Shown here one piece after another: positions 3,176 through 59,889 of a stretch of 64,000 nucleotides of DNA (within the stretch, counting starts at the first letter, position 1; the number at the start of each line of letters is the position of its first letter). The stretch covers positions 33,170,001 to 33,234,000 of the forward strand of contig OX597838.1 in the NCBI GenBank assembly GCA_951406725.2, written 5' to 3'. The position numbers and the translations under genes were made by a program. The notes under the pieces are model-generated. The model was not told the DNA's origin and made no database searches. It saw only the letters and a list, made by a program, of their open reading frames with translations. This DNA is from Octopus vulgaris (Eukaryota).

Positions 3176-3645
3176 TTATGCGTAATTATAACTATTTAAT
3201 TGTAATTGTTCTGTAAATGATACATAACCTTTTTCGAAACAGCTGTAAAGAGAAATGAATATTCGAAGCATCAGTGATATTTTATGTTAAAGAAAATAAT
3301 ATCACTGGTATTATAAAGAATGGTCATATCAGATATATGGTTCTAAATGCCCTTAAATAGACTGGTTGGAATGTGTTTTGATTATAAAATCTGCGAGTAA
3401 AGATTTCGAGTTGATCTTAAATCAACGAAAGGAATTTACAGGACACCGAATGTTTCTCGAGACCTTTCTAGAAACACAATCTGGAAGATTTTCATTCCAA
3501 AAACATTTCTGAGACTTATTACTGCCATTATTTCAAGAATGTTAGTAGCATACACCCGGAATAAAGACCTACCCGAACTCAAATACGAACCATTTGCTAA
3601 TGAAGTAATCAAATAATTACTGCTACTACGGTTGCTGCTGCAAGT

Positions 3646-4080: not shown

Positions 4081-6540
4081 ACATAGACATAAACATGCCA
4101 CACACACTTTGTATATGTATATGTATGAATACAATGTATACATTTAAACTTTTACACATGCATATACACTTGTATGCACACACTATGTATAACGTAAGCG
4201 CGCGCGTGAGCATGCGTGTTTCTTTGTTATCCAAACTGAGTGTATGCTGCTGCCGCTGCTGCTGCTGCTAACTTTTAACATTTGATGGGGATGTTGCTCT
4301 GGTTTTGTCTTCAGCGTGGGAAACAAACAAGAGCGAATATTATGCGAAATGTTCTGATTTTGTTCTAACTGGAGAGACCTGTAAAAAGCAGACGACATTT
4401 AAACGCAATAATCGGTTGCTTTCGCTCGCTCTATGACAACTCCGCCTCATTTTCTCTCTCTCTCTCTTTCTCTCTGTCCCCATCGCTCATCTGTAATTCT
4501 AGTTCCATTGCTCGACTCTTTGTCTTTCTCACTCTTTATTTCTTTCTCTTTCTCCATTTATTTATTCATTTGTTTCGTAAGTTCTGCAGAGGATAAGATT
4601 TCAAGTAATTTCAAAAACGGAGGGAGTCAGACGATGTTTAAAGCGAGTAGTTTGTCGTTGCAGCGAAACCTAACATACAGTTAATAAGTACGCTTTATTT
4701 CAAAAGGGTAATTCATGGTATTTTCACTAAATTAAAAATGATTTATTTCATTAAATAAAAATTAATGGAAATAAATATAAAATAAAATGAATTATAATTC
4801 TTTTTTGTAACATTGGCTGGCACAACTAACTGCACAAGTTTTAAAGGGGTGGAGGGGTATCGTGAATTATATTTGACCTTTCCACAGTGCATGGCCGGCA
4901 CATATTAAATCGAGCCCCGCTAAAGATGAAGGGCAGATTCTTTCTCGGTGGGTTTTAAAATTCAGAACGTAAAAAATCGGGATTAAACACTATATGGCAA
5001 TTCTTCCAGCACTCTGCCGATTGCTTAAGTCCACTGCTTTTAAATCATATAACGACGGATAACTTTCGGTGTGAAAGCAACAATCAATCATGTTGACTCC
5101 AGTATTTCACTGGTAGTTGATTTTTATAGGGCTCCGAAAAGAATAAACCATAAAGTCGACCCTCGGAGGAATCCTCACTCGAGACGTGATACATAACCTC
5201 TCTGTGAGAGATAACAGCAAGACCTAAGCTGGGGGGGGGGGGTTTCTGACGTCTGTCGTTTTTTTTAGATTCGCTTAGACTTGTATTATCGATAATTAAA
5301 ACCAGTTAATTATCTTCACCTCACCTTCCACTATCTGCAACTTTCCTCTAATTGCACTCAGTATTCGTGAGGTGCCAATGTTGGATTCAATGTACAGCTA
5401 ATGCCTGATATTATCGGCTCAGTTTGGGGCAAAAATGAACAAACGGACCCATAACAGTGACTCGAAAAAGGTACCTATCACTTGTTAGGTGACCATGTCA
5501 TTGCTTTTGGGCAAAACAAAAACAAAAAAAAATGCAAACGGATCTACTACCGGACTCTAACAAGATACCTATCGGACGACAACTATTGACTGTTACTACA
5601 TAATATCGGCCTGCCGTTCCATCTTCTCAAATTAGCTACTATAAACGCTCAGTTATTTCAGCTAATATTTCGCTGCACTTTATTACTTCATCAGTCTCTT
5701 AGCGCTAGCAAGATATGAAGATATGTTATTAATATTTGACAAAGTAAAGTGTTTCCCGTTGTGCTGATGTTCACGGAATAAGCCCAGAGAATCAAATTAT
5801 GAATTTAACTGCTTAAATTTTCATGTTAAAATAATAAAGAGATTTATAAGGCAAAAAAGAAGCAGAAAAGAGAAGAAAATGGATTCCTTTCTCTTTTATG
5901 CCTGAAAAACTCGGTGTTAATAATGTCTCCTGAGCCTTTACGTTGAAAATCTTAAAAGCAAAAACACAAATTTCTTTGGAGATAGTGGTGGGGTGAAGTT
6001 TTGTTTCTTTTGGTATCTGTTAGAATCTGAAGAAAGGATTACATCGCCTATGTCAGTTCTTGGAGGCATAGACGGAAACCAATACAAGAAATACCAGACC
6101 CATGGCACCGCTTTCTGGTACTTTCTCTGCCAGTGTTCTCTGAGGATTAATTTCCTTTTGGCGGCTTAGAACTTGTCATGTGACACGATTAACGGAGTTG
6201 AGTGAAGTCTCACAGTTTTAATGGAGGTGCATGCATTTGTGTGCGCGCACGCACACGTACACGCACGCACACGTACACGCACGTACACACATACACACAT
6301 ATATGTATACATTCATAAATATAAATTTGCAAGTGTATACATACACATAAATACATATATATATACACACATACACGTGTACATGTGTGTACATGCACTT
6401 AAACACGCACATCTATACACACAAACGCATAAATACATGCACTCAAAAATACATGTATACATGTATACATACACGTAAAGCTAAACACGTGCGCATGTGC
6501 TTAAATTTAAATATATGTATATCTATACAGTTGTGTATGT

Positions 6541-9131: not shown

Positions 9132-9735
9132 CTTTTCTACTCTAGGCACAAGGCCCGAAATTTTTGGGAAGGGGAGCCAGTCGATTAGATCGACCCCAAT
9201 GCGCAACTGGTACTTAATTTATCGACCCCAAAAGGATGAAAGGCAAAGTCGACCTCGGCGGAATTTGAACTTAGAACGTAAAGACAGACAAAACACTGCT
9301 AAGCATTTCGCCTGGCGTGCTAACGTTTCTTATTTCTTTATTGCCCACAAGGGGCTAAACATAGAGGGGACAAACAAGGACAGACAAACGGATTATGTCG
9401 ATTATATCGACCCCAGTGCATAACTGGTACTTAATTTATTGACCCCGAAAGGATAAAAGGCAAAGTCGACCTCGGCGGAATTTGAACTCACAACAACGGT
9501 AGACGAAATACCTATTTCTTTACTACCCACAAGGGGCTAAACATAGAGGGACTAACAAGGACAGACAACGGACTAAGTCGATTACATCGACACCAGTGCG
9601 TAACTGGTACTTATCCCCAAAAGGATAAAAAGCAAAGTCGACCTCGGAGGAATTTGAACTCAGAACATAACGGCAGACGAAATACGGCTACGCATTTCGC
9701 CCGGCGTGCTAACGTTTCTGCCAGCTCGCCGCCTT
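9132..9735 (-). mobile_element. SINE family A trimer inserted as one unit, 16-bp TSD
   Basis: ACTCGGAACCAATATT at 9116-9131 and 9736-9751 brackets one head, three bodies and one terminal tail. Confidence 0.92.
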
Positions 9736-14536: not shown

Positions 14537-14572
14537 CTTTTACATTTCGAGCCTACGCTCTTCTACAGAAAG
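14537..14572 (-). ncRNA. Minimal hammerhead-like motif, A6U core variant (family P2), within PLE-like fragment about 14461-14630
   Basis: cuuu-CUGUAGA-A-GAGC guag GCUC-GAAA-UG-UA-aaag. Confidence 0.7.
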
Positions 14573-14946: not shown

Positions 14947-15081
14947 CTTTATTGAAAAGCAGCAGAAATAGCACAAAAACTGCTACGTTCCCGTTCATCG
15001 AACAGGTTTTCTGTCTGGCGAACGGCAACGTGAAACTCTGAGTAACAGTTTTTGTGATATTTCTGCTGCTTTTCAGTAAAG
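14947..15081. repeat. Fold-back (inverted) duplication of a hammerhead-bearing element end
   Basis: Arms 14947-14985 and 15043-15081 are reverse complements (3 mismatches); homology continues into the ribozyme cores in the centre. Confidence 0.85.
15011..15048 (+). ncRNA. Type I hammerhead ribozyme, A6G mutant
   Basis: cugu-CUGGCGA-ACG gcaa CGU-GAAA-CUCUGAG-UA-acag. Confidence 0.7.
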
Positions 15082-15192: not shown

Positions 15193-15280
15193 ATACTTTG
15201 ATACTTTGATACTTTGATACTTTGATAGGTTTCGGCCATTATTGGCCCAGGCCATGTCTAACTTAATAGCACCACCTGGT
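15193..15280 (-). mobile_element. 56-nt mini retro-element with (ATCAAAGT)n tail
   Basis: First 56 nt identical to 30524-30579; four tail repeats here. Confidence 0.8.
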
Positions 15281-15372
15281 GCATATAACGAAGAACAAAC
15301 ACAAGAAAAGAGCAACAATGCGAGGACGTAGTACATGTAAAGTATTAGCAGACGCTCAGGGAAAGAAAGATA

Positions 15373-15408
15373 GTTTAAGGTTTCGAGCAGACGCTCTTCT
15401 TCAGAAAC
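15373..15408 (-). ncRNA. Minimal type I hammerhead ribozyme (family P1), intact core
   Basis: guuu-CUGAAGA-A-GAGC gucu GCUC-GAAA-CC-UU-aaac. Confidence 0.75.
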
Positions 15409-15550
15409 AGAGGAAAGTCCAATAGAAAAGGCAGGCGAAGGAAAAAAATTGCCGATTCACATGTGGTTAAATTTTTTGATATATATTACATGTATGATAC
15501 ATATATAATATTGTGAAACACGGTTTTTGTCCTTGGGTATTTCCTAATTT

Positions 15551-15757
15551 TCTTACCTCATGAAAGTACGAAATATGGTTAATATTTCCTACAAACTTTG
15601 CATTCCTCAAACTTATCCCTGCTTGGGCAGCTAGAAGTAAACTGAATTGTTAAGCCTACGATCCTAGCATTTATACTGCCATTTATGTTGCCAGAATGTT
15701 CTAGAAATTCTTGAAAGTTTTAGAAACTTCTCGAAATTTTTAGAAATTCCGAGAATA
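15551..15757 (-). promoter_or_regulatory. Putative heat-shock-inducible Pol II promoter: HSE array, TATA, Inr, 87-nt first exon, splice donor
   Basis: nGAAn units with about 10-bp period at 15693-15757; TATAAA at 15675-15670; TCAGTT Inr at 15645-15640 (+1 = 15643, TATA at -32); GAG|GTAAGA donor at 15557/15556. Confidence 0.65.
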
Positions 15758-15857
15758 GTAATAATTTCCTTTGAATTCTAGATATAAGCAAATAGGAAAC
15801 AACATTTACTGACCAAAGACGAAACAAAATTTTAATAATAATAATAATAATAATAAT

Positions 15858-16297
15858 TGCTCAATACCATAGATTTGCTTGTCAGTTATTTGATCTTAAC
15901 CAGTTGAGCATGTCCCTTAGTGGCTGACGATACGTGCATCTCTGATCACGAGCAGAAGTAGTGGGGGAGCATCATAGCCATGTGTTGATAGGGATTCTTT
16001 GGGGTTTGAATGATTCACCTCTGGAAACATGGGTGTTTCGTTCAACATCCTTAAACAACCCTTATTCAGGGACCTTTTGAGTGGGATGGGTTACTCGACC
16101 TGAAGAAAATTCTAACTGGGCCCCACCTGCAAGGTCATGTGCTGTTTATCTTGATATGAGATCACCATGTCGCGCACACATGGTTGTGATGCATGTGCCT
16201 AGTGTACCCTTATCAGACGGGTAGTCATGATAGGTATACTGGGCTTCGTATATTTTACCCCAGTGTCACTTTGATGGCATGCACTGCTCTCTCACTC
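15858..16297 (+). mobile_element. 3' portion of non-LTR retroelement inserted within a (TAA)n tract
   Basis: (TAA)n on both sides (15834-15857, 16298-16312); second copy at 912-1100. Confidence 0.7.
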
Positions 16298-16419
16298 AAT
16301 AATAATAATAATAGTAAAAGTAATAAGCTCTCAGAACAAAATACTCCAAATATTACATTGATAAAAGCACTGACTCGCCACAGTGTAGGATGTGCTCTGA
16401 GATGGGACAAAGTATAAAC

Positions 16420-16653
16420 TTATTTCTTTACTACCCACAAGGGGCTAAACACAGAGAGGACAAACAAGGACAGACAAACGGATTAAGTCGATTATATCGA
16501 CCCCAGTGCATAACTGGTACATAATTTATCGACCCCGAAAGGATGAAGGGCAAAGTCGACCTCGGCGGAATTTGAACTCAGAACGTAACGGCAGACAAAA
16601 TACCGCTAAGCCTTTTGCCCGGCGTGCTAACGTTTCTGCCAGTTCACCGCCTT
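16420..16653 (-). mobile_element. SINE family A, monomer
   Basis: Homology to 588-820. Confidence 0.9.
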
Positions 16654-18776: not shown

Positions 18777-19196
18777 TCTTCGTTTGGGGTTTGTATTTAC
18801 CCACGACCTACTTTTCGTTTTGGGTTTACATTTATTTATCCATGACAATCTTTTCGTTTTTGGGGCTTACATTTACCCATGACCTATTTTTCGATTTGGG
18901 TTTACAGTTACCCATGACTTACTTTTCGTTTTGGGTTTACATTTACCTATGACCTACTTTCGATTTGGGCGTACATTAACCCATGACCTACTTTTCGTTT
19001 TAGGTTTACATTTACCCATGACCTACTTTTCGTTTTGGGTTTACATTTTACCCATGACCTACATTTCGTTTTGGGTTTACATTTACCCATGACCTACCTT
19101 TCGTTTTGGGTTTACATTCACCCATGACCTACTTTTCGTTTGAGTTCTACATTAACCCATGACGTACTTTTCGTTTTGGGTTTACATTTACCCATG
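18777..19196. repeat. 35-bp minisatellite, about 12 copies
   Basis: Unit TTTTCGTTTTGGGTTTACATTTACCCATGACCTAC. Confidence 0.95.
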
Positions 19197-58149: not shown

Positions 58150-58953
58150 CGGTCTTTCATGCTGATAAGACGGGCCTACTGGGACGTTTTTGATTATGAG
58201 AGCAATTTGCTCTGTCAGGACTGACCAGGGGTTAAAAGAATGTGTGAGAGAGAGAGAGAGAGAGGGGCGATAGAGAGAGGAAAACAAGACAGAATGTAAA
58301 TATAACAAATAGTAAAGCTGAACTTACCACTCGTTAGGGAAAAATACATGGATAAGAAGCCGAGAATTAGCAGGTTATTCCATTTCAAATCGTCTGTTGC
58401 CATTGTAAACCGTAAACCATAAAAACGTTGTATATATCATATATGTGTATGTCGTATAAACAAGATCCGATGGGTGTAGAAAAAATGAGAGAGAGAGAAA
58501 AGAGAGAAAATGTAGGAGTTTATGTTATAATAACAGTAGCTTCGAACTGTGATGTGTTTGTTGTGAGTCGACAAACATTTAGAAGCCAACAGCAGCAGCG
58601 GCAGCGGAGGCAGCGGAAGCAGCAGCTGAGAAGTTTGAAGCAGCAGCGGCAACGACAGCAGAACGAACACATGGATTGGTGAATGTTTCTATTTACAAAA
58701 CCGTGGGAGGGGGAGGCAGGAAAGCGAAGCACTTAAACGTGTGTGTATGTACGTAACTTTATGTATGTGTGTGCATGTGAGTGTTTTGACGAACGCTGGT
58801 TGCTCGTTCATTTTGCGACATTTTTCAATTGAAAAACTTCTCAAATTGAACCGTTCTTCTCCGAATTTTGACTTTTAACACGAAATTTCTTTAGTTTCGT
58901 TTCAGGTTTAATGATTTTCATTCGAATGTAACTTCAGTTTCCCATTCGATCTC

Positions 58954-59889
58954 GGTATTTCGTCTGCCGTTGCGTTCTGAGTTCAAATTCCACCGAGGTC
59001 GACTTTGCCTTTCATCCTTTCGGGGTCGATAAATTAAGTACCAGTTACTCACTGGGGTCGATGTAATCGACTTAATACCTATGTCTGTCCTTGTTTGTCC
59101 TCTCTGTGTTTAGCCCCTTGTGGGTAGTAAAGAAATAGAAATAGGTATTTCGTCTGCCGTTACGTTCTGAGTTCAAATTCCGCCGAGGTCGACTTTCCCT
59201 TTCATCCTTTCGGGGGTTGATAAATTAAGTACCAGTTACTCACTGGGGTCGATGTAATCGACTTAATACCTATGTCTGTCCTTGTTTGTCTCTTCTGTGT
59301 TTAGCCCCTTGTGGGTAGTAAAGAAATAGGTATTTCGTCTGCCGTTACGTTCTGAGTTCAAATTCCGCCGATGGTCGACTTTACCTTTCATCCTTTCGGG
59401 GTTGATAAATTAAGTACCAGTTACTCACTGGGGTCGATGTAATCGACTTAATACCTATGTCTGTCCTTGTTTGTCTCTTCTGTGTTTAGCCCCTTGTGGG
59501 TAGTAAAGAAATAGGTATTTCGTCTGCCGTTACGTTCTGAGTTCAAATTCCGCCGAGGTCGACTTTGCCTTTCATCCTTTCGGGGTCGATAAATTAAGTA
59601 CCAGTTACTCACTGGGGTCGATGTAATCGACTTAATGCCTATGTCTGTCCTTGTTTGTCTCTTCTGTGTTTAGCCCCTTGTGGTTAGTAAAGAATTAGGT
59701 ATTTCGTCTGCCGTTACGTTCTGAGTTCAAATTCCGCCGAGGTCGACTTTGCCTTTCATCCTTTGGGGGTCGATAAATTAAGTACCAGTTACTCACTGGG
59801 GTTGATGTAATCGACTTAATACCTATGTCTGTCTGTCCTTGCTTGTCCCCTCTATTTTTAGCCCCTTGTGGGTGATAAAGAAACAGGTA
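58954..59889 (+). mobile_element. Tandem array of five about 185-bp SINE A bodies lacking the A-box head
   Basis: GGTATTTCGTCTGCCG starts at 58954, 59144, 59329, 59514 and 59698. Confidence 0.95.

Follow-up and report, generated by a model that had tools for sequence, protein, structure and literature searches.

A predicted heat-shock promoter within a short dispersed repeat of octopus DNA

Heat-shock motifs on the minus strand

Here we analysed a 64,000-nucleotide stretch of Octopus vulgaris DNA (the window), animal DNA that is rich in microsatellites and contains numerous interspersed repeats, and followed up a block of promoter-like motifs at 15551-15757 on its minus strand. The block opens with a heat-shock (HSE) array of 13 GAA/TTC units, 10 of them perfect, which are split over two registers that share one base rather than forming a single in-phase run. 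The proximal register (15693-15707) is a three-unit HSE with 3/3 units perfect, and it is shifted by one base against the distal array. The distal register (15707-15756) contains 10 alternating units, seven perfect and three with one mismatch, and is also a decayed tandem repeat with a 10/20-bp period; TRF reports 15694-15749 as a tandem array with a period of 20. Read in plus-strand letters, the 64-kb window has just two perfect three-unit HSEs, at 15693-15707 and 15722-15736. The top 12-unit alternating score is 37 out of 48 (window mean 12.0, sd 3.4), a value reached by 0 of 5000 dinucleotide shuffles of 15512-15860.

A TATAAA box at 15675-15670 (minus strand) follows 17 nt downstream of the array. 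It is followed by an Inr-like TCAGTT at 15645-15640 (minus strand), whose A at 15643 is the predicted +1 and lies 32 nt from the start of the TATA box. Among the 95 TATAAA sites in the window, this is the only one with an Inr-like TCAKTY at matching spacing. A GTAAGA splice-donor-like site (15551-15556, minus strand) stands directly 3' of 15557, giving a predicted first exon of 87 nt (15557-15643, minus strand). The calls for HSE, TATA, Inr and donor use consensus patterns that we take from general knowledge. An HSF-type promoter is expected to hold at least three contiguous inverted nGAAn units just upstream of a TATA box placed about 30 nt before the initiator; here there are two perfect triples, with 17 nt from the array to the TATA box and 32 nt from the start of the TATA box to the initiator A. 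Judged by its motifs, the block has the layout of an HSF-type (hsp70-type) promoter. An earlier note on this DNA had described about 13 nGAAn/nTTCn-like units with two perfect triples, TATAAA and TCAGTT at canonical spacing, and a donor 87 nt after +1, and had read them as the architecture of HSF-driven promoters. All of these motifs were located where it placed them, and the HSE triples and TATA/Inr spacing bear out its reading of the layout.

A looser HSE-like cluster, with three two-unit GAA/TTC matches, is present at 3440-3540. As a candidate relative of the promoter block it was rejected, with an alignment score of 105 that is below the shuffle maximum of 119.

A dispersed repeat around the block

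The promoter block is single copy within the 64-kb window. We aligned public contigs to 15228-15960 at 85% likeness, including the DNA runs X4 (organism A) and X7 (organism B). Counting up to a limit of 128 contigs per site, a different letter was carried by 9 (X4) and 9 (X7) contigs at 15683, 11 and 21 at 15697, 20 and 24 at 15717, and 100 and 98 at 15785 in the left end. Since one diploid locus cannot yield 9-100 variant contigs per site, the block belongs to a dispersed repeat family. The promoter is thus not the orphan that the earlier note had called it, and the suspicion that it derives from a transposable element is borne out by its repeat membership.

Summed contig depth, which is not a copy number and was used for profile shape only, is high in the bins from 15503 to 15827. 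From this we place the repeat copy holding the promoter block at 15503-15828 on the minus strand, with approximate ends. The positions 15822-15864 were skipped in the profile as a simple repeat. The most repeated part is a left end block at 15776-15824 (minus strand), with a summed depth at 15778-15802 of 43170 (X4) and 150404 (X7); the single-contig medians listed there are 17 and 43. Depth is high again at 15678-15727 and at 15553-15602, the latter covering the 3' half of the predicted first exon, which is itself a repeated block (3640 in X4 and 13100 in X7 at 15578-15602). It is low over the TATA box and Inr, at 106-145 and 119-436 in the two DNA runs, and 15603-15677 lies 300 to more than 1000 times below 15778-15802. 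Given how uneven the depth is along the element, a mosaic of several repeats is possible. The lowest summed depth, 34 (X4) and 453 (X7), is in the right flank at 15478-15502. Directly upstream of the element, 15858-16300 (no strand assigned) is an unrelated very high-copy repeat flanked by (ATT)n runs, which served as a positive control with summed depths at 15903-15927 of 2.0e6 (X4) and 8.5e6 (X7).

Related copies keep the array, TATA box and Inr together. One paralogous contig spans 15631-15726 with 12 differences in 96 letters, and a further related contig spans approximately 15623-15708 and then continues in HSE-like letters. Most related DNA contigs retain the TATA-box base at 15675, where another letter accounts for 55.8 of 811 depth in X7 and 0 of 349.4 in X4. 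The exceptions are one contig from a further run (X2) that changes 15675 and one X7 contig that skips 15650-15685. A contig from organism B over 15700-15821 is near-identical, with 1 difference, which suggests that the insertion predates the split of organisms A and B, unless that contig represents a close paralog. The segment separating the array from the TATA box contains a further difference: at 15683 this copy departs from every X7 contig and from most X4 contigs, which read AGATGGCAG (15676-15684, minus strand), a sequence that we take to resemble a CTCF/YY1-type motif.

Within the array, all four listed variant sites (4/4) fall on n positions and none on GAA/TTC. This would fit selection for HSF binding, but it is only a hint because the 85% filter favours conserved copies and the count covers listed variants only. 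The same sites bear on whether the array is just a decayed 10-bp minisatellite inside the repeat, HSE-like by accident and carried in a transcriptionally dead copy. The tandem array reported by TRF is what such an origin would leave, and this copy differs from its relatives at many sites and is therefore not young. We nevertheless find this account very improbable: the TATA box and Inr stand at canonical spacing from the array, the listed variants spare the core letters, and a tandem origin is compatible with function, the HSEs of Helitrons also being tandem as outlined in PMC6927752.

The motif spacing, very exact and unique among the 95 TATAAA sites, would also be explained if the block served a host HSF target gene or small gene family as promoter and non-coding first exon, with coding exons beyond the window and unrelated repeats around it. 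Non-coding first exons are common in hsp90 and hsc70 genes. The TATA/Inr part has the fewest relatives, and the near-identical organism B contig would suit a host gene as well. However, a heavily repeated block takes in the donor together with the 3' half of the exon, and 0 of the 84 minus-strand frames of at least 40 aa below 16500 reach a Pfam cut-off. All 84 were included in a Pfam scan of 271 of the 657 non-low-complexity frames of at least 40 aa, none of which matched at the curated cut-off. A host gene at this locus is, in our estimate, quite improbable. A tRNA search of the window found none.

Part of the stretch is contained in 7 of 24 listed public runs, none of which is recorded as RNA; this bears neither way on expression. 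Between 0.47 and 0.59 of the stretch's words occur in each of three small runs from a single study, two of which, X1 and X2, we examined; they are listed with the uncertain library type 'RNA?'. Exact matches in these two runs extend to either side of the predicted start, with contigs over 15569-15781 at depth 2.6 and over 15571-15767 at depth 2.3, though contigs show presence only and not starts, strand or level. Among the joints and loose ends listed in four runs, none was at 15557. Relative to X4, the sites from 15656 to 15717 have ratios of 0.06-0.15 (X1) and 0.05-4.0 (X2), while the left end and the neighbouring repeat have ratios of 0.007-0.019. Measured against X4, the HSE/TATA part in X1 and X2 is 6 to 65 times better represented than the left-end block or neighbouring repeat at three of four sites, and less at the fourth. 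We did not count this apparent over-representation as support, because these runs were found with the stretch itself and each contig has a single depth value. The hammerhead repeat described below, which has a single contig of depth ~110 in both X1 and X2, also reaches a ratio of 0.05 (at 15435).

Inverted ends and the type of element

The left end block is the left arm of an imperfect inverted repeat, in which 15776-15824 pairs with 15564-15525. The right arm (15525-15564, minus strand) is degenerate, with two collinear 10-of-12 blocks at 15538-15549 and 15525-15536, and the donor-like site lies within its inner end. The pairing was matched by 40 of 3000 shuffles (p ~0.013, after the fact) and equalled by 16 of 6392 window tiles, two of which are the right arm itself; alone, the inverted repeat of the present copy is weak evidence and proves little. 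One contig in each of the two DNA runs contains an opposite-strand joint, 15563/15785. Such a joint would arise if the right end of other copies were a reverse-complemented left end, and it suggests arms of at least 28 bp, although it is possibly one orthologous locus in both runs. A search of approximately 2000 boundary pairs for a target-site duplication (TSD) gave as its best 6-mers at chance level, and the left flank is a simple repeat beside another insertion. The contigs and window frames examined held neither a full second copy nor a parent transposase.

The repeat is short, dispersed (9 to 100 related contigs per site) and non-coding, as expected of a MITE; its two reading frames match no Pfam family. 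Probably, this ~320-base repeat is a small transposon. Somewhat more specifically, we favour as the better-than-even reading that the block is the inside of a non-autonomous DNA transposon of ~320 bp, with imperfect inverted ends and an inward-reading heat-shock promoter; it would be MITE-like, though possibly a Helentron-type HINE.

The earlier note had suggested, as a possibility, a solo LTR at about 15512-15804. Such an LTR would be the remnant of an HSE-bearing LTR retrotransposon with HSEs and TATA in U3 and R/U5 downstream, comparable to Macrostomum Ty3 families and ONSEN. In its favour, 15804 and 15512 can be read as TG...CA ends, this copy is one of a repeat family, and HSEs upstream of an LTR start site are documented in another spiralian (PMC12801592). 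Against this, the flanks of 15804 and 15512 share no TSD (4-6 bp expected), and AATAAA and ATTAAA are absent from both strands of 15500-15830. The repeat also continues past 15804: depth in 15803-15827 is still ~42% of the peak, although only 2 of these 25 positions lie inside the proposed LTR. The opposite-strand end joint likewise suits inverted ends better. Of the question whether this is a repeat-family LTR, the repeat family stands on the related contigs, and the LTR, with its left boundary inside the repeat and its missing TSD and polyA signal, does not; we regard it as improbable.

If the block is a non-autonomous DNA transposon, the order within it would be left arm, HSE array, TATA, Inr, short leader and right arm. 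The promoter would point into the element from its left arm, which is the place expected of a transposase promoter. The element may be a deletion derivative that kept the heat-inducible promoter while the parent transposase has since been lost. HSF trimers would bind the array and transcription would start at approximately 15643. The RNA would then run on into flanking repeats or splice from 15557, where the donor-like site, as part of the right arm, could join any downstream acceptor.

The closest precedent for the array is in the Caenorhabditis Helitrons (Helitron1_CE, HelitronY1/Y4; PMC6927752), where tandem overlapping HSEs are likewise carried by a dispersed, mostly non-autonomous DNA element. 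As reported there, HSF-1 binding and induction have been demonstrated, and Helitron1_CE transposase mRNA is induced in an HSF-1-dependent manner, whereas for the octopus block both are predicted. Unlike those Helitrons, as the same source describes them, the octopus block has ends that look inverted and a TATA-Inr-donor series after the array, and no Rep-helicase parent was seen. With the Ty3/Mdg4 LTRs of the spiralian Macrostomum lignano and with ONSEN it shares canonical HSE triples upstream of a predicted TATA in a transposable element, but unlike these LTRs, as described in PMC12801592, it has no TSD, polyA signal or internal region, and the repeat passes the proposed TG end.

In its overall form, the block resembles HINE/DINE-1 (PMC4067079) and the Donax tandem-repeat MITE DTC84 (PMC3879986). 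As sketched in these sources, they are similarly short and non-coding with a T-rich left flank, and they have short inverted blocks near both ends and a central tandem repeat. In the octopus element, subTIR-like blocks at 15813-15824 and 15525-15536 match at 10 of 12 positions, and a T run (15825-15831, minus strand) adjoins. An AT-rich hairpin is located at 15481-15511, mostly where related contigs are fewest. The octopus element thus differs from HINE/DINE-1, in the description given by PMC4067079, in that its blocks match at only 10/12, no family-wide 3' hairpin was seen, and the joint suggests arms of at least 28 bp rather than subTIRs of 12-15 bp.

Transposon-borne HSEs are already known to work in Caenorhabditis, crucifers and one flatworm. 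In the literature covered, mostly open-access main texts, there was no report of transposon-borne HSEs for cephalopods, and none of a full core promoter plus donor carried on a short element with inverted ends. The main text of a coleoid regulatory-genomics paper (PMC13652810) does not contain 'heat shock', 'HSF', 'MITE' or 'Helitron'. An existing repeat library may hold the family of this element unnamed. It is conceivable, though we think it doubtful, that this family of non-autonomous transposons disperses a first exon for heat shock, complete and portable (HSE array, TATA, Inr, leader and donor), within an octopus-type genome and so rewires the thermal-stress response. If this were true, tens of insertions would each be an HSF-inducible start splicing into downstream host exons; the variants sparing the core letters and the higher representation of the HSE/TATA part in X1 and X2 would be hints in this direction. 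With a functional family one could readily ask whether mobile DNA has a part in how a marine ectotherm responds to heat.

Neighbouring hammerhead motifs

The window contains eight minimal-hammerhead-like motifs, five on the minus strand and three on the plus strand. Two of these lie downstream of the promoter on its strand, and the earlier note was correct in placing hammerhead-like motifs ending at 15373 and 14537. The first (15373-15408, minus strand) is located in a separate Penelope-like repeat (~15287-15453), which would be an independent neighbouring insertion. Its CUGANGA and GAAA core is intact with stems I and II present, but positions 15.2-16.2 are C-C and not palindromic. At 15379, most related contigs carry the C-G letter (1957/2247 depth in X4 and 24273/27644 in X7). 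The second (14537-14572, minus strand) has the core CUGUAGA, with U where the CUGANGA descriptor has A. This U is found in half of the eight copies, at 14537-14572 (minus), 23535 (minus), 28887 (minus) and 32849 (plus), and the CUG-U-N-GA copies with similar stem II may represent a variant subfamily rather than decay.

Both motifs resemble the Penelope-like minimal hammerheads in having stem I, a CUGANGA-type core, an extra nucleotide, stem II and GAAA without helix III, as set out in PMC4209133. Neither named copy fits that descriptor fully, however, and neither is part of the promoter element. A search of the window against Rfam gave 0 matches at the gathering score, and no hammerhead is among the 100 matches with E up to 10. 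Folding of seven hammerhead-like stretches gave z from -1.1 to +0.6, which is uninformative for motifs thought to act as dimers.

The earlier note had further inferred a stress-inducible transcript that would run into these same-strand hammerheads, coupling heat stress to ribozyme-element RNA production. On this model, promoter and hammerheads would form one unit making a stress-induced, self-cleaving RNA. The two are on the same strand, with ~150 nt from the donor to the first motif. Penelope pseudo-LTRs are described as holding a start site, a 5' intron and a hammerhead, with the D. virilis intron ending at helix I (passages of PMC8557442 and PMC4209133), and because Penelope elements combine these parts we keep such a unit at a very low probability rather than at zero. 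The evidence against it is considerable. The hammerheads belong to a separate and much commoner repeat, and depth between the two repeats drops to the 34 (X4) and 453 (X7) of the right flank. A perfect HSE triple occurs within 700 nt upstream of 0 of the 7 other copies, and the eight motifs lie on both strands. The first motif is without the palindromic 15.2-16.2 pair and the second has an altered core; single minimal hammerheads, a type widespread in animal genomes, did not cleave in vitro according to PMC4209133. In addition, the first AG after a pyrimidine tract is at 15400-15399, inside the core of the first hammerhead, so that an RNA spliced from the donor would carry a cut motif or lose it with the intron.

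The promoter's position before two damaged-looking ribozyme motifs thus appears to be coincidence, and the striking ribozyme coupling is not upheld. The locus presently amounts to one copy of an unclassified repeat, with its function predicted from the DNA letters.

Pattern searches for copies of the promoter-bearing element in viral contigs gave 0 and 0. Five other pattern matches, one in a metagenome and four in bacterial genomes, were set aside as chance, each being only 20-23 nt long.

Several other repeats were observed in the window. Two more CUGAUGA...GAAA cores, at 5694 and 60945 (both minus strand), have a longer stem II, unlike the common repeat. Between the two named hammerhead copies, 14947-15081 is a 135-bp imperfect palindrome that remains 69% identical when reverse-complemented and is probably a small foldback repeat. 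Head-to-tail runs of a ~185-bp part of a SINE-like repeat, which is also present at 16420-16650, occupy 58953-59883 and 9179-9735, and a 35-bp minisatellite of approximately 12 copies is located at 18779-19196.
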